Shown in pieces: positions 57,423 through 63,998 of a stretch of 64,000 bases of DNA (positions within the stretch are counted from its first letter, which is position 1; each line of letters begins with the position of its first letter). Location: contig AP026679.1 in NCBI GenBank assembly GCA_025999155.1, positions 666,561 through 730,560 on the forward strand, given 5' to 3'. The DNA is from Candidatus Dojkabacteria bacterium (GTDB taxonomy: Bacteria; Patescibacteriota; Dojkabacteria; JAOAGR01). A program made the position numbers and the translations under genes. The notes under the pieces were generated by a model, which had not been told where the DNA came from, made no database searches, and saw only the letters and a list, made by a program, of their open reading frames with translations.

Positions 57423-57953
57423 TTAGAACCTTCCGGCCATGTATTGATTAGTAAATCCATTCATGTATGTATCGAGAATTACACGAATGTTAGGGATATT
57501 AGCTAATACAAAATCTTGGATTCTTTTTATTGCTTCTTGTTGCTGACTAGGATCGTTGCCTGACTGTTCGGCTAAAGCGTTTAACTCGTTTCTTTTATCT
57601 TCAGGTAAAAGAGACAAAGCCATATCGTATATTTCAGCCTCCAACTTATTATATACTCTTGCAACTTCAAAATTTACCACATCTTCAGATACATCTGGGC
57701 CTTGGGATTTAATACTATTTATGGTCTGAGGGTCAAGAGGAGGATACATATTTGGATCTGTTGCAGAGAGTTGCGAATAATGAGCCAAAAAATAGTTCGG
57801 TCTGTACTTACGATTCACTAATTCGAGTATATACTCTCTGAGCTTCACATCATAATCTCTCGGTAAGTTTGCTGGGTAAGCAGCAAATGGCACAACATTT
57901 TTTGTGTTGCTATTTGGTTGCATGTTTTGATTTACGTTGTGTTGATTGTTCAT
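57423..57953 (-). CDS. Hypothetical protein
   Basis: 176 aa, hydrophilic, N/Q-rich N-terminus. No motif recognised. Confidence 0.3.
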   Translation of the reverse strand: MNNQHNVNQNMQPNSNTKNVVPFAAYPANLPRDYDVKLREYILELVNRKYRPNYFLAHYSQLSATDPNMYPPLDPQTINSIKSQGPDVSEDVVNFEVARVYNKLEAEIYDMALSLLPEDKRNELNALAEQSGNDPSQQQEAIKRIQDFVLANIPNIRVILDTYMNGFTNQYMAGRF

Positions 57954-57986
57954 GGTATTTTAAATATAAATATTATTTGATAAATG

Positions 57987-58889
57987 TCAAGCTGTAATTA
58001 CGCGCTCTAATGTAGCAATGCGTTCTTCTATAGGAGGGTGTGTTGAAAACATTTTACGTAGAAAAGACCCTGATTCTTTTAGAGGAAAGTCAATGAACAT
58101 GTGAGCATTACCTTCGGTTGCGTGTATCACTGGTGTGTCATCTGCTGCCAATTTTTTTAATGCGCTAATTAAACCTTGTGGATATCGAGTGATTTCCACT
58201 GCTGACATATCAGCTAGGAACTCTCTACGTCGTGAAATGGCCATCTGGATCATTAGAGATATAATAGGAGCAAGTATTAGTAATAACAATGCAATGATTA
58301 CCATAACAATATTTGCACCCTCATTTCTTCTATTTTTGTTATTATGAAGAGTGCCTCGTAAAATTGCATCTGTCGCATAAGTTAAAACACCAGCCAATAC
58401 CGAGACTATCAACATTAATCTTATATCATAATTTCTAATATGAGCTATTTCATGTGCTATAACTCCGTCAAGTTCTTCTGTATTTAGTTTTTGTAAGAGG
58501 CCCAGTGTAATAGCTATGTGTGAATGTTTAGGATCACGTCCTGTTGCATAAGCATTAAGGGCATCTTCTGGTAGTATATGTACTCTTGGCTTAGGAATAC
58601 CCGCCTTTATAGCTATGATTTCAACTCTGTCATTTAAATATTTAAATTCAGGGTTATCTGTCACATCAATGGCACCTGTCATCTTTAAAACCATTTCGTC
58701 CCCAAAATAGTAAGTAGATAGTGTGCCAATTAGTGAGATTGCAAGAGATAACAATCCATAAAATATACCTACTGACCAGCTTTGTGTCAGAGCATAACTT
58801 AGAAGCATGACGCTGGTCACAATATATACAATAAATACTACCATTAAGATAAAACTAAGCCGTTTGTTTTTATCAATTTGGGAGTACAT
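57987..58889 (-). CDS. htpX: Zinc metalloprotease HtpX homolog (M48 family), catalytically intact copy
   Basis: 300 aa. Two N-terminal TM helices, 'GVIAHEIAHIRNYD' (HExxH), two further TM helices, and the third-ligand region 'RRREFLADMSAVEITRYP'. C-terminal 'FSTHPPIEERI'. Confidence 0.8.
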   Translation of the reverse strand: MYSQIDKNKRLSFILMVVFIVYIVTSVMLLSYALTQSWSVGIFYGLLSLAISLIGTLSTYYFGDEMVLKMTGAIDVTDNPEFKYLNDRVEIIAIKAGIPKPRVHILPEDALNAYATGRDPKHSHIAITLGLLQKLNTEELDGVIAHEIAHIRNYDIRLMLIVSVLAGVLTYATDAILRGTLHNNKNRRNEGANIVMVIIALLLLILAPIISLMIQMAISRRREFLADMSAVEITRYPQGLISALKKLAADDTPVIHATEGNAHMFIDFPLKESGSFLRKMFSTHPPIEERIATLERVITA

Positions 58890-59153
58890 AAAACATCAAT
58901 TTATTAATTTTATCACATTTACCAATCGCAAAATTTCCACATTTAAACATCATTTAGGGAAATATTACTATCAGTAAAAGATGTCATGTAGAAACGTTAT
59001 TGTTTTTGTAGATAATCAAATCTATTAGTTAACATTATCGCAAAGAGTATCAGTAAGGGTAAGTAAAAGCCGGCATATGCACTTATTTAGGTCTAGAGTT
59101 AGCATTTGAATCTGTATTTTAATATTTCAAAGTAAACTCGTTTTTGTTTGAGA

Positions 59154-59462
59154 TCAAGAATCTTTACCACAAATTGTATCTATTTTAAACGTTTGGTTAA
59201 GATATATGTTACCTATTCGTTTTTTATGGTTTGGATACTGATGAATGTAAAAGTTTTGATCGGTGTGTTCTGAATATATTGGTAGGCTGTAGTTGAATAT
59301 TGATAAAACGATTAGGTTGATATTATTCCTTGCGTATTTCTGGCTGTCATCCCCACTGTGGAGCAATATCATATTTAGCATGTGAGCCCCGTTTGCTGGC
59401 GCACTCGTATTTGTATTTTGATCTTGTCCGATTATTTGATTCGGGTCGTTTTGTGGATACAT
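59154..59462 (-). pseudogene. Chimeric ORF containing a remnant of the lemA 3' end (duplicated fragment)
   Basis: DNA 59321..59380 ('attattccttgcgtatttctggctgtcatccccactgtggagcaatatcatatttagcat') is ~80% identical to the lemA 3' end at 60601..60660. The encoded N-terminus '...AHMLNMILLHSGDDSQKYARN' parallels the LemA C-terminus 'AKYDIEPRWGGQYEIRKE'. Confidence 0.4.
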
Positions 59463-59501
59463 AATCTAACAATGACAAATATAGAATATCGTATTAAAAT
59501 G

Positions 59502-60497
59502 TCAGCCATCCGTTAAACGGTTGAGAGCAGTGATACGTTCTTCGATTGGAGGATGTGTTGAAGATAATTCATCTATTTTATCGAAAAAACCGGATATCTG
59601 TTTAGATATTCGTTTAGATATGGATATTCGTTTAGATGCTTGTTCAGATGTTTGCTTGGATTTTAGTTTAGATCTTCGTTTAGGAAAAACAATAAACACA
59701 TGCGCGATATTGCCTCCAGCACGAGTAACCGGAACTGTGCTTGCTTGCAATTTCTTCAAAGCATTAATCAGACCCTGCGGATGTCTCGTAATTTCTACTG
59801 CAGTCATATCCGCTAAAAATTTTCGACGTCGCAAAATAGTATTTTTAATTATCGTTGACAAAGTCGTAGCAAGGATAATAAGTACGATAGTTATCAAGAG
59901 CAGTATACATCCACCTTCAATTATATAATGTCGTCCCTCTCTACTGTTAATAAGCGCCGCCCAAAAGATAAACATGGTGTAAGCTAAAACGCCTTCTGTC
60001 GCATCGACAATCGACATCAGTCTGGTGTCATAGTTTTTTATATAAGCCATTCCGTGGGCGATTACACCATCTAGTTCTTCAGTATTTAATTCTTGTAAAA
60101 GACCCAATGTGACAGCTATATGCGCATGCTTAGGATCACGTCCTATCGCATAAGCATTTAAAGCTTTTTCTTGTAGTATATAGACTCTGGGTTTAGGTAT
60201 ACCTGCCTTAAGAGCTATGATCTCCACTCGGTCATTCAAATATTTGAATTCAGGCTTATCTGTCACATCGACAGCTTTCGTCTTCTTTAAAATCCTTTTA
60301 TCCAGAGAAAAGTAAGCACGTAGTACGTTAATTAGCGAAGTTACAAAAGCTATCACTCCAACAATTATGCTTAGCCACTTGTTTCTTGTGAAACTATAAC
60401 TGATAACCGCTACACTAGCCGCAATAAACATCATAAAGACTATCAATAAGATAAAGGTACGCAAGTTGTCTTTATCAATCTGAGAGTACATAAGCAC
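59502..60497 (-). CDS. HtpX-like M48 paralog with all three zinc ligands substituted (HExxH to HGMAY; ExxAD to KFLAD): predicted inactive pseudo-protease
   Basis: 331 aa, collinear with htpX. 'GVIAHGMAYIKNYD' versus 'GVIAHEIAHIRNYD'. 'RRRKFLADMTAVEITRHP' versus 'RRREFLADMSAVEITRYP'. It retains the TM topology and 'STHPPIEERI'. Carries an inserted basic repeat 'KRISISKRISKQIS'. Confidence 0.7.
   Translation of the reverse strand: MLMYSQIDKDNLRTFILLIVFMMFIAASVAVISYSFTRNKWLSIIVGVIAFVTSLINVLRAYFSLDKRILKKTKAVDVTDKPEFKYLNDRVEIIALKAGIPKPRVYILQEKALNAYAIGRDPKHAHIAVTLGLLQELNTEELDGVIAHGMAYIKNYDTRLMSIVDATEGVLAYTMFIFWAALINSREGRHYIIEGGCILLLITIVLIILATTLSTIIKNTILRRRKFLADMTAVEITRHPQGLINALKKLQASTVPVTRAGGNIAHVFIVFPKRRSKLKSKQTSEQASKRISISKRISKQISGFFDKIDELSSTHPPIEERITALNRLTDG
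59594..59686. repeat. About 7 imperfect tandem copies of a 12-bp unit (tcgtttagatat-like) inside the htpX-like paralog CDS
   Basis: Sequence 'ctgtttagatat tcgtttagatat ggatat tcgtttagatgc ttgttcagatgt ttgcttggattt tagtttagatct tcgtttagg'. It is in-frame (12 bp = 4 codons) and encodes the K/R-I-S repeat in the C-terminal tail. Confidence 0.6.
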
Positions 60498-60607
60498 CCT
60501 AATACATTTCTATCCGGCTATCCGAATATTTCGGAGTCAAAACGACATATGGCATTATAAACCGACGCACAAGTCGAAATGAGATGTATGCAGAAACAAG
60601 GCCGATA

Positions 60608-61309
60608 TTACTCCTTGCGTATTTCATACTGCCCGCCCCATCGTGGCTCAATATCATATTTAGCATTTTCTGATGCCTCGAAATAGCTTACTGGCTTATA
60701 GCCCATCAATGAAGCGAGTATATTATTTGGAATTATAGAGATTTTCTCATTATATTCACGTGCGGTAGTATTGTAAATCTGGCGTGCTGCAGCTATTTTC
60801 TCTTCAATAACAGCATCTTGATCCATGAAATTCTTAATTGCTTCCTGGCTTTTTAACTCAGGATAAGCCTCCAATGTAACTCTTAAAGCCTGTATCGCGC
60901 TAGTCAAAGTATGCTCTGCAAGAGCTTTTTGATTAGCATGGGAAGCATCTGATTGTGTAGTTCTTGCTACGTCAGCAGCACTACGGAGTTCTGCAATTTT
61001 TGTTTGAATTTCTTTATCTGTTGAGATTGCTTTTTCAACAGCCTGTATTAAATCAGGTAATAGATCATAACGGTTTTGAAGTCGTACATCTATTTGTCGC
61101 CAAGTCTCGTCTACACGAGTTTTCGCCTTTACTAAAGAGTTGTAAATAAATATAACTATTAAGATAACTAGCCCTAGAATACATATGACTAGAACTGGTA
61201 TCGATATTGAGTTGAGCACATCAGACATACACCATTCTAACACATTAAAGGCCAAACTCAAACATTCAGAGATGCGATCATAATTATGCTGGTATACTGG
61301 CATTACCAT
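60608..61309 (-). CDS. lemA: LemA family protein
   Basis: 233 aa with an N-terminal TM helix. 'YNSLVKAKTRVDETWRQIDVRLQNRYDLLPDLIQAV' is the LemA core signature. Confidence 0.8.
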   Translation of the reverse strand: MVMPVYQHNYDRISECLSLAFNVLEWCMSDVLNSISIPVLVICILGLVILIVIFIYNSLVKAKTRVDETWRQIDVRLQNRYDLLPDLIQAVEKAISTDKEIQTKIAELRSAADVARTTQSDASHANQKALAEHTLTSAIQALRVTLEAYPELKSQEAIKNFMDQDAVIEEKIAAARQIYNTTAREYNEKISIIPNNILASLMGYKPVSYFEASENAKYDIEPRWGGQYEIRKE

Positions 61310-61394
61310 GGTGTTGACCGCTGACGGCTAACTTTTTTGAGTCTGTGTCATAAATTTAGATTTGGAATACTAGAAGAAACTGCTAGAATGAGTC

Positions 61395-62264
61395 ATGGCA
61401 GATGATGGAAATAATACACTAGAGCAGGGTGATGGGAAAAATAAGGCATCGCAAAATAGAGCATCTGGGAAGAAATCAGGTAAAGATGTTTATGATGCAG
61501 GAACTGATTCTGTTGAGACGCTAAGGTCAGATGTAAACACCAGCCATGATTTTTCAGATAATGAATCAGGGATTGAGCCAAAAATAAGCGAGAAAGAAGT
61601 AGATAATGCAAATACAGGGCAGGTTTTTCAGGACGAAGAGCAAAATGGAAAAAGAAGAGTTTGGTTAGTCAAACTAACACTATTTATAATTGTAATTGTT
61701 TTCCTAGCAATGTTGTCATTTATGACTTATTCGTACTATCGCGAAACTATTTTTTTAAAGAACTTATCTTCCGTAAAACAAGATAACATAGTTTTCTATT
61801 TTCCGAAGGAATTTAAACATAACCCCTATAGCGATGTGTATATAGATTACAGAAGTCAAAATCTAAATCAGAAAGGTTTTTATAATAGTATACGTCTTTT
61901 TTCCTTCGAATCTTTGAATAAAGCGACAAAAATTACGGATAAAGAAACCTGCAGATTATTTGTTGAGGATAAAATTGATGATGAACCGAAAGATGCGAAT
62001 GACGCAGAGGATAAAGGTTACATATTAGAGAAGCTTGAGTTTAATAATTTCTTCGGGAAAAAGACTTGTTATTTTGTTATCAAATACGATCTGGCTAAAC
62101 TCGTGAATGATAGTACTCTTGAAGGTCAATATGTTATAGCTGAAGGAAAAGTAATTGTGAGGGGGGGGACTGCATTAGGGGTGTTTGCAAACTACGATGA
62201 TGGCACGTCTGTGGAAGAAAGAGATAGAATTCATCGGTCTGTCATTTTTTTTGATGTAAAGTAG
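61395..62264 (+). CDS. Hypothetical membrane-anchored protein
   Basis: 289 aa. Hydrophilic N-terminal ~90 aa, a single TM 'LVKLTLFIIVIVFLAMLSFM', then a C-terminal extracytoplasmic domain. No family recognised. Confidence 0.3.
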   Translation: MADDGNNTLEQGDGKNKASQNRASGKKSGKDVYDAGTDSVETLRSDVNTSHDFSDNESGIEPKISEKEVDNANTGQVFQDEEQNGKRRVWLVKLTLFIIVIVFLAMLSFMTYSYYRETIFLKNLSSVKQDNIVFYFPKEFKHNPYSDVYIDYRSQNLNQKGFYNSIRLFSFESLNKATKITDKETCRLFVEDKIDDEPKDANDAEDKGYILEKLEFNNFFGKKTCYFVIKYDLAKLVNDSTLEGQYVIAEGKVIVRGGTALGVFANYDDGTSVEERDRIHRSVIFFDVK

Positions 62265-62383
62265 CATCATTTCTGAAATACGATTGGTAAACATTTTCAC
62301 ACATGCGTTCGTATTTAATAAAAGTTAGTCAAAATATAAAATTTGGAGCAAAAACCGCAATCTACTATATTCAATAATTCGGG

Positions 62384-63358
62384 TTAATAATCACGAGTGA
62401 TGAGCTGTCTTAAAGAAATCATGTTATTTGACTGGCTTACTCGGATTGGGCTGTCGTATAGATTGGAATTTTCTATTGTATCAAGGTTCTTTTGGGTGGG
62501 TTGTAAGTGATCATGTTCTATATATTTATTAAATGACGTAGTAAAATTACTGTAAATGACATTCGTGTGTTTTTGGTGGCTTCGCCAGACTGTAGATATT
62601 GGACGAATATGATTGATTCCGAATTTGTTCATTATCATACGTCCTAAAAATGTAATGTGAAATATAAGTAGAGATAGATTTATTGGTATAGATCTAATAT
62701 TGTCAAGTTTAGCCTCGCCAATCATTAAAATTATCAAACCTAAGATCAAGAAATGTGATACAATTATGACTTTACCGATTTTAGCTTCTATCTTCTGATA
62801 ATATGTATAGTAAATTATTGATATCAGAAAGCCTAGAGATGGCAAGAGTATAGTAAATAGTTCTTGTATCTCTCGTACAGGTTGGGAAATTTCTAGGACG
62901 GCATAGAAAAAAAATACATGTGTAATCCCCAAGTGGATTAACATATCCGCAATGTTTTGATAATGTGCAATAGATGAGACAAATATAATGTTTTGTTTAA
63001 TATGTGTTGCTTCTTGTACTAAATTTAGAATCAATTTTGTGGCTAAGGCAAATCCAACAAGAAAAGTTAATACATAAAATGCAAGAAAAATTAGTTCACT
63101 AGAAATGATAAAAGAAATATTTCTATCTATATTGATATATTGGTGATTTAATATATAAATCAATACAGTACCAATAATGAGTATTTCAATCATTATTATT
63201 CTTGTGGTCGACAGTTTCTCCAGCAAGAACAGTCTGATGCGAGACTGGTCCCATACTGATAAGCGTAATATTGCTGGTAAGAGAAGTCTTATTAGTATAT
63301 ATAAATACAGCAATGAAATAAGGAAATAATGCATGATTCTTTCTATAAAAAATAACAA
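62384..63358 (-). CDS. Hypothetical polytopic membrane protein
   Basis: 324 aa with ~8 hydrophobic helices. No recognisable motif. Confidence 0.3.
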   Translation of the reverse strand: MLFFIERIMHYFLISLLYLYILIRLLLPAILRLSVWDQSRIRLFLLEKLSTTRIIMIEILIIGTVLIYILNHQYINIDRNISFIISSELIFLAFYVLTFLVGFALATKLILNLVQEATHIKQNIIFVSSIAHYQNIADMLIHLGITHVFFFYAVLEISQPVREIQELFTILLPSLGFLISIIYYTYYQKIEAKIGKVIIVSHFLILGLIILMIGEAKLDNIRSIPINLSLLIFHITFLGRMIMNKFGINHIRPISTVWRSHQKHTNVIYSNFTTSFNKYIEHDHLQPTQKNLDTIENSNLYDSPIRVSQSNNMISLRQLITRDY

Positions 63359-63383
63359 AATATAACTTTTTAAACAAATGCCG

Positions 63384-63998
63384 TTAATTATTGTCTACAG
63401 TGCTATTTTGTTCGCTATCTAGTCCCAATAAATCGATTTTCTGGTGAGGGCGTTTTGAAAATTGTGTTGTAGGGAAAAGATGCTCATCATCTACTTGGCT
63501 AGAAAACAGGCTGTTGACTGTCAATGAATCAAATTTAATATCTGATGCTTTTGTCCTTCTTTTTTTACTTTTATACAAAATATACAAAATAATGCTTACT
63601 ATGATTACTAGAATACTCATTGCCACAATTAATAAGATTGTTGTCAAAGGATTAATGGGCATCGATATGGTGGTTTGTTCGTTAGAAACTTCCGTAGGTG
63701 TGGTTTCGGCTTGTTCGGTAGATTTCACAATAATAACTTTAGAATAACTCTGATCATTATGAATTGTGGCGGTTATCTCAACTTGTAATGATGGCTGGTC
63801 CAATTGAATAGGTATAGTAAATTCGCCACTATCTAAATCAATTACGAAGATCTTATTCTCTTCAGAATTCGGATTTATTTTATACGTGACTTTAGCACTT
63901 GGATCCGACACATAAGCTTTGATTTCGATATTTTGTTCAGTGGTTTCATAAATAGATTTATCTGTTTTAATATCTGGAATCAGTAAGGCCGATTTCAT
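63384..63998 (-). CDS. Hypothetical single-pass membrane protein
   Basis: 204 aa. N-terminal extracytoplasmic beta-rich region, a TM 'ILLIVAMSILVIIVSIILYILY', then a basic stop-transfer 'KSKKRR'. Confidence 0.3.
   Translation of the reverse strand: MKSALLIPDIKTDKSIYETTEQNIEIKAYVSDPSAKVTYKINPNSEENKIFVIDLDSGEFTIPIQLDQPSLQVEITATIHNDQSYSKVIIVKSTEQAETTPTEVSNEQTTISMPINPLTTILLIVAMSILVIIVSIILYILYKSKKRRTKASDIKFDSLTVNSLFSSQVDDEHLFPTTQFSKRPHQKIDLLGLDSEQNSTVDNN

Follow-up and report, generated by a model that had tools for sequence, protein, structure and literature searches.

The closest described systems are HtpX proteases, lemA-htpX gene pairs and membrane protease homologues that have lost catalysis. 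HtpX proteins (M48B; E. coli HtpX and the Vibrio domain of PDB 3CQB) are about 300 amino acids (aa) long and carry two N-terminal transmembrane (TM) helices, an internal hairpin and NAxATG and THPP motifs. In S. pneumoniae D39, lemA and htpX (SPD_1139/SPD_1138) are adjacent and co-regulated (PMC8546594). FtsHi1-5 (M41), EGY3 (S2P family) and iRhoms have lost their catalytic residues and are retained in binding or scaffolding roles (PMC11266112, PMC9355673, PMC6451368). Here we describe a locus of a tiny-genome bacterium of Candidatus Dojkabacteria, a lineage of the Candidate Phyla Radiation (CPR), in an AT-rich stretch of 64,000 nucleotides (nt; contig AP026679.1; 34.7% G+C), referred to below as the window, which holds one complete lemA gene and two htpX-like genes. 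The copy directly behind lemA, htpX-B, is catalytically dead as judged from its residues, and on balance we favour, with reserve, its being a retained non-catalytic HtpX (M48) paralogue, or pseudopeptidase, over its being a decaying gene.

Both copies resemble HtpX in size, in NAxATG and THPP motifs and, for the most part, in predicted TM layout; both match PF01435, and their best NCBIfam matches are HtpX equivalog models. They differ from curated HtpX in that neither reaches the cut-off of equivalog NF003425 (355 bits; 289.7 for htpX-A and 218.5 for htpX-B), and htpX-B differs further in carrying HGMAY and Lys for HExxH and the Glu ligand, a weak third TM helix (TM3) and a 26-aa basic insert. 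As in S. pneumoniae D39, eight other CPR loci have lemA immediately next to one htpX in the same orientation, whereas here the dead copy follows lemA and the active one lies about 1.7 kb further on. FtsHi, EGY3 and iRhoms offer the closest analogies to htpX-B, being likewise membrane protease homologues without catalytic residues; they are conserved over large eukaryotic clades and have demonstrated functions, whereas htpX-B is a single bacterial allele known from sequence. The features on which the argument turns are:

57987..58889, minus strand: htpX-A, 300 aa; PF01435 115.8 bits against a cut-off of 20.3
59502..60491, minus strand: htpX-B, 329 aa; PF01435 88.4 bits against a cut-off of 20.3 (up to 60497 if an upstream GTG is taken as start)
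60042..60056, minus strand: HGMAY of htpX-B, in the HExxH position
59820..59822, minus strand: Lys224 of htpX-B (AAA, within RRKFLAD), in the position of the third zinc ligand, Glu
59600..59683, minus strand: 12-nt tandem repeat, about 7.5 copies, encoding a Lys/Ser-rich insert specific to htpX-B

Active site and fold of the two HtpX copies

Alignments of htpX-B were made first to 14 and then to 119 homologues, and also to the Vibrio HtpX domain of known structure (PDB 3CQB). In all alignments, that with 3CQB included, AHGMAYI falls on AHExxHI and RRKFLAD on RREFLAD, so that the initial annotation had placed the motifs correctly: HGMAY lies exactly on HExxH and Lys224 on the Glu ligand. It had also stated that all three zinc ligands are replaced, which holds for His150 (to Tyr) and Glu224 (to Lys); ligand His146 is retained, and the third replacement is that of the catalytic Glu147 (to Gly). 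Each of the three requires one nucleotide change. Of the three zinc ligands htpX-B has thus kept one, and the catalytic Glu is gone. By an established rule, zincins take the Glu base and two His ligands from HExxH and a further ligand, Glu, from downstream; on that footing the encoded protein is predicted to be dead as a protease, because the HExxH Glu and two zinc ligands are replaced. As far as its residues tell, it is a pseudopeptidase in the usual sense of an enzyme-family homologue without catalytic residues. Loss of HExxH was seen in none of the 119 close homologues and none of 149 representatives at 50% identity (0/268).

To place these losses in the context of the whole protein, we considered the 43 columns that are conserved in at least 97% of the 119 homologues. 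htpX-B departs from seven of them (N8D, E147G, H150Y, P209T, S220L, E224K and F310S) and retains 36, while other members lose 0 to 3. The departures hit three of the four catalytic positions versus four of the 39 other invariant columns (Fisher p = 0.0105). Indels relative to homologues are all in frame and the open reading frame (ORF) is intact. The 26-aa Lys/Ser-rich insert (RRSKLKSK...KRISISKRISKQIS) is specific to htpX-B and was made by the 12-nt repeat. The two copies share 52% protein identity, and 73.8% DNA identity across the 5' 488 nt.

Membrane topology had been described as conserved in htpX-B. This is the case for TM1, TM2 and TM4, which are strongly hydrophobic; TM3 has gained an Asp and a Glu, and its best Kyte-Doolittle window is 1.43 versus 1.9 in htpX-A. 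An AlphaFold2 model of htpX-B, driven by the family alignment, is confident, with a predicted local distance difference test score (pLDDT) of 86.6 and a predicted template modelling score (pTM) of 0.82; a Foldseek search with it returned Ste24/ZMPSTE24 (E down to 7e-5), the HtpX domain 3CQB, BlaR1 and BepA. htpX-B therefore keeps the M48 sequence signature and, in this model, the predicted fold. Public records of the dead copy (BDQ05132.1 in the window, GIW57075.1 in a second assembly) are both named 'protease HtpX' despite the absent catalytic motif; the label is a carry-over by homology.

htpX-A is, as initially annotated, an intact M48 protease gene. HEIAH (58454..58440) and Glu223 in RREFLAD (58223..58221) supply both the HExxH motif and the downstream Glu ligand, and 43/43 invariant columns are kept. 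The gene is chimeric: the first ~190 nt are unlike the allele of a related strain, L003 (GCA_008362845.1), and the remainder is 93-100% identical to it. The segment unlike L003, at 58700..58889 of the window, is the hairpin part of htpX-A. The TM1-TM2 hairpin (aa 1-72) evolves fast in every htpX allele of this clade, with a ratio of nonsynonymous to synonymous rates (omega) of 0.5-0.6 in intact copies and 1.4-1.8 in htpX-B, which may stem from diversifying selection or from a recombination hotspot.

Selection and ancestry of htpX-B

In a neighbour-joining tree, htpX-A, its counterpart in assembly L005 (GCA_026004335.1), the alleles of L003 and of strain L001 (JGI 3300038964), and htpX-B form a clade with 100% support, within which htpX-B pairs with the intact htpX of L001 (96% bootstrap), its own branch being about three times longer. 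Synonymous divergence (dS) is 0.64 between htpX-B and the L001 gene, 1.3-2.1 between htpX-B and htpX-A, and 1.3-2.6 between the L001 gene and htpX-A; the G+C content of third codon positions is 0.316, 0.327 and 0.253 in htpX-B, L001 htpX and htpX-A, respectively. Over the first 72 codons the three genes are equidistant (dS ~0.45). Tree and distances place htpX-B in the allele lineage of L001 htpX, an intact gene in a sister strain, and its evolution has been about 3-4 times faster than that of the L001 gene. The initial view of htpX-A and htpX-B as simple sister copies, duplicated in place, does not survive this grouping, and htpX-A is itself recombinant.

Since their split, 58 amino-acid changes are specific to htpX-B and 15 to the L001 sister. 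The hypothesis that omega on the htpX-B branch (omega_B) equals the background was rejected, the htpX-B branch being far higher (likelihood-ratio test, p = 4e-22). Omega was estimated by the method of Nei and Gojobori (NG86), with bootstrap, and by maximum likelihood (ML), where equal synonymous branch lengths were assumed for htpX-B and its sister. By region, the results are as follows:

aa 1-72: 17 changes in htpX-B, 7 in the sister; omega_B 1.4 (NG86), 1.82 (ML)
aa 73-146: 6 changes in htpX-B, 3 in the sister; omega_B 0.11 (0.04-0.26; NG86), 0.085 (ML; p = 2e-9 versus 1, and not different from background)
aa 147-225: 22 changes in htpX-B, 2 in the sister; omega_B 1.2 (NG86), 1.69 (ML)
aa 226-329: 13 changes in htpX-B, 3 in the sister; omega_B 0.38 (NG86), 0.38 (ML; p = 0.014 versus 1)

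Under the same assumption, the two fast regions (aa 1-72 and aa 147-225) fitted jointly gave an omega_B of 1.87 (p = 0.035 versus 1), and the whole gene 0.57 (p = 0.003 versus 1). Recent gene conversion was considered as a source of the conservation of aa 73-146 and rejected, dS in that segment being 1.31 to htpX-A and 0.77 to L001 htpX.

Gene order, the lemA relic and the mosaic locus

All genes of the locus lie on the minus strand and are transcribed in the order lemA, htpX-B, lemA relic, htpX-A, orf176, leuS. A distance of ~1.7 kb, which includes the lemA scar and a 430-nt spacer, thus separates the lemA stop from active htpX-A further downstream. The public entries BDQ05132.1 and BDQ05130.1 are proteins of the locus; their contig measures 738,054 bp. 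The remaining features are:

60608..61309, minus strand: lemA, intact 233-aa ORF; PF04011 133.3 bits against a cut-off of 26.2
60492..60607, minus strand: lemA–htpX-B spacer, ~110 nt, without similarity to other spacers
between the htpX-B stop and the relic: spacer of ~120 nt
59317..59381, minus strand: lemA 3'-end relic, the last 19 codons, stop codon and a few nt of lemA, with an in-frame TGA
58890..59316, minus strand: relic–htpX-A spacer, ~430 nt, with only patchy alignment to a 718-nt spacer of L001
57423..57953, minus strand: orf176, without family match, a conserved downstream neighbour of htpX in Dojkabacteria
after orf176 in the direction of transcription, minus strand: leuS
57463..60676, no strand: recombinant patch of L005/L003 type in an L001-like backbone

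Two M48/HtpX ORFs and a complete lemA are present, as initially described. The pairing of the genes was also given correctly; their direction was reversed, since on the minus strand lemA precedes htpX-B and the relic precedes htpX-A. lemA probably starts at Met28 (61228), which is where the L005 annotation begins it.

The lemA remnant beside the active htpX is real: it spans 63-65 nt, is 82.5% identical to lemA positions 60604..60666, has a local-alignment z-score of 20 against 1000 shuffles, and reads HAKYDIAPQWG*QPEIRKE* in the lemA frame. It is nearer to the lemA end of L001 (60/65 nt, 92%) than to that of the window's own lemA (52/63 nt). Its homology begins at the 18-mer ATGCTAAATATGATATTG, a sequence shared without mismatch by all lemA alleles and occurring only twice in the window. 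In shuffle tests no lemA homology was found beside it, either in the 120 nt up to the htpX-B stop or beyond. Because its edges are sharp and lemA homology is absent on either side, the relic reads as a recombination scar: it looks like the junction of a segmental duplication or unequal recombination with an endpoint among the final 60 nt of lemA. No second full-length lemA is required on this reading, and the 'reciprocal decay' of two modules that had been proposed is not demonstrated by so sharply bounded a remnant. Beyond this 63-nt relic, no decayed htpX or lemA turned up in the long spacers of the window, L001 or L003, and the relic–htpX-A and other spacers gave no Rfam family, tRNA or significant RNA fold.

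Two alternative-frame ORFs, 59154..59462 (102 aa) and 60499..60666 (55 aa), both on the minus strand, cross the relic and the lemA 3' end, respectively, in the same shifted frame (MLNMIL...). Public annotations call the 102-aa ORF a gene; we rejected it as such, as it has no family match and is unconserved in L001 and L003, and it is probably spurious. A PADLOC scan for defence systems gave no meaningful match.

Comparison with other assemblies reveals a locus made mosaic by recombination. From 64000 down to 60649 the window shares 99% identity with L001, and the match to L001 resumes, at ~100%, from 57462 down; L001 has lemA, a 718-nt spacer and a single intact htpX (P0002) without htpX-B. 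Between these flanks, 60676-57463 is of L005/L003 type, and this 3.2-kb patch carries htpX-B, the relic and htpX-A. The part from 60676 to ~58450 (~2.2 kb) is 100% identical to L005, while in the flanks the 5' part of lemA and leuS show 10-15% difference; on its right side the patch diverges from L005 by 2-8%. The left junction falls inside a 28-nt stretch common to all three sequences that holds the 18-mer ATGCTAAATATGATATTG, and the last ~45 nt of lemA are accordingly of another allele type than the remainder of the gene, being L001-like (99%) down to 60649 and then identical to L005. The cassette (lemA 3' end, htpX-B, relic, htpX-A and orf176) is thus present in two different genomic backgrounds. 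Because ~2.2 kb of the patch is L005-identical while a near-identical L001 backbone exists without the cassette, this indicates that the htpX-B cassette moves between ~90%-identical CPR strains by homologous recombination, and that the exchange was recent.

Upstream of lemA, 61200..63500 of the window encodes orf289, a 324-aa multi-TM ORF and a Ser/Thr-rich membrane ORF, without Pfam matches. This block of predicted membrane or surface proteins is hypervariable, only 40-65% identical to L005 and 99% identical to L001. In L003 (also in L004 and L015), lemA is split into ORFs of 79 and 72 aa by a +1 frameshift, located in a poly-A tract at L003:1060-1080 (7 A versus 5-6 A). A genuine pseudogene, phase variation and a homopolymer error are all conceivable, and the two assemblies may share reads.

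A history compatible with these observations would begin in an L001-type ancestor with a segmental duplication or unequal recombination that copied the last ~60 nt of lemA through htpX. Catalysis would then have been lost in the upstream copy, now htpX-B directly behind lemA, while the downstream copy stayed active and, together with orf176, was partly overwritten by an L003-type allele. The whole cassette would finally have been transferred, recently, into the window's backbone.

The usual arrangement in relatives is simpler. Each of the eight other Dojkabacteria/Saccharibacteria loci has one lemA directly upstream of one htpX, with a gap of mostly 0-30 nt, and orf176 and leuS are often next after htpX. 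The pairing of LemA with HtpX noted initially is therefore conserved in relatives, and it extends to S. pneumoniae D39. The tandem with htpX-B was found only in the window, in L005 (protein GIW57075.1) and on a 2339-nt Logan contig (DRR290133), three assemblies that probably come from one sampling project; neither L003 nor L001, which matches the window at 99-100% in both flanks, has htpX-B. The tandem is accordingly not the stable trait of the organism that it had been taken for. Among 5.8 billion proteins no other htpX-B-like sequence exceeded 57% identity, the 57% match being intact; among 1.84 billion representatives the best match was 45% and all matches carried HExxH; and a DNA scan of JGI metagenome contigs with htpX-B gave no orthologue.

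Readings of htpX-B and what they imply

That the dead paralogue is kept for a non-catalytic role, as first suggested, is favoured by the loss of catalytic residues in an intact ORF of which a part seems constrained; it is plausible but hinges on a single allele and on equal synonymous branches being assumed for htpX-B and its sister. The competing possibility that htpX-B is a non-functional, redundant copy heading for loss, its ORF open by chance or owing to recent inactivation, is one that we take seriously and hold to be the less probable of the two. It would account for the seven lost invariant positions, the weakened TM3, the slippage-type repeat insert, the absence of htpX-B from the nearest relatives L001 and L003 and the lack of an orthologue in the databases searched. 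Several further points weigh against retention. Whole-gene omega_B depends on the clock assumption, ranging from 0.57 to 1.7: without equal branches, ML gives ~1.7, not different from 1, and aa 73-146 also becomes non-significant, as the unconstrained fit moves synonymous change onto the sister branch and cannot apportion it between the two; the outgroups are saturated at synonymous sites. The htpX-B allele is identical in all three assemblies, so that constraint on orthologues would need more alleles to be seen; an unsampled functional allele could recently have donated aa 73-146 at this heavily recombining locus; and the changes in TM3 could disturb the topology. Expression arguments are of little help, since a promoter/terminator scan was near background and uninformative (26 sites versus 18 expected) and most long ORFs here have A/T-rich upstream sequences without Shine-Dalgarno motifs, which makes reasoning from ribosome-binding sites unusable. 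Decay fits poorly, on the other hand, with changes so strongly non-uniform by region (17/6/22/13 versus 7/3/2/3 in the sister), with the low omega_B of aa 73-146 under equal synonymous branches and with the 36 invariant columns that remain. In neutral simulations at matching divergence, moreover, htpX-B would have stayed free of stop codons with a probability of ~1-4% (~1% at K = 0.13; frameshifts ignored).

The other explanations concern the origin of the tandem or the activity of its upstream copy. Duplication of a complete lemA-htpX module, each copy then losing one gene (the second lemA eroded to 60 nt, the first htpX inactivated), predicts the pairing seen, of intact lemA with dead htpX and of relic with active htpX, and one deletion of the lemA 5' part could give a sharp edge; we nevertheless find it unlikely, given that lemA homology is missing on both sides of the relic, that the relic starts at an 18-mer common to all lemA alleles, as expected of a recombination junction, and that htpX-A and htpX-B come from different allele lineages. 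An assembly artefact, with the tandem or the mosaic patch arising from mis-joined reads of co-occurring strains, is brought to mind by the apparent co-occurrence of the window genome and L005, by the Logan contig, which breaks exactly at their divergence point, and by the position of the left junction in a stretch common to both allele types. We judge it very improbable, as the order lemA 3' end–htpX-B–relic–htpX-A 5' end is contiguous in three assemblies, the 2339-nt Logan contig included, the sole internal repeat (63 nt) is 82% identical and matches exactly over no more than 18 nt, the patch departs from L005 on its right side and so is not simply made of L005 reads, and htpX-B differs by at least ~43% of residues from all other sequences, which is beyond sequencing error. 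Activity of htpX-B through non-canonical residues is scarcely credible: His146 and most non-catalytic conserved residues are retained, but Gly stands in place of the general-base Glu, Tyr and Lys occupy two of the three metal-ligand positions, the alignment shows no HExxH or Glu elsewhere that could compensate, and none of the 268 homologues uses such residues.

If htpX-B is indeed a retained pseudopeptidase, selection would have kept it as a translated protein and preserved mainly the soluble subdomain aa 73-146 before the HExxH helix, and less strongly the C-terminal subdomain, while the TM hairpins and the region of the catalytic helix and TM3-4 would have been freed or diversified. The preserved part includes the NAYAxGRD strand, which zincins use to dock the substrate backbone. 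More speculatively, its most likely role would be that of a membrane-anchored, non-cleaving binder, co-expressed with LemA. Such a protein could hold LemA and/or unfolded segments of membrane proteins intact, and so buffer or modulate what HtpX-A sees. The fullest version of this proposal strikes us as doubtful: that htpX-B is a selected non-catalytic HtpX derivative in the post-LemA position, the first M48 pseudopeptidase and a substrate-holding or regulatory partner, with LemA, of HtpX-A, and that omega above 1 in the TM hairpins and the spread of the identical cassette between strains reflect diversifying selection at the envelope of episymbiotic CPR bacteria.

The importance of the locus is limited for now, because the evidence comes from a single htpX-B allele. 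A review of metallo-pseudopeptidases contains no mention of M48, HtpX or Ste24; if htpX-B is functional, M48/HtpX would join the metallopeptidase families that have spawned pseudopeptidases, possibly as the first M48 case. The locus also illustrates how homologous recombination shuffles envelope-related cassettes among ~90%-identical CPR strains. To our knowledge, no function is established for LemA even though it is widely paired with HtpX, and a naturally occurring locus that joins it to an HtpX restricted to binding could help to work one out.

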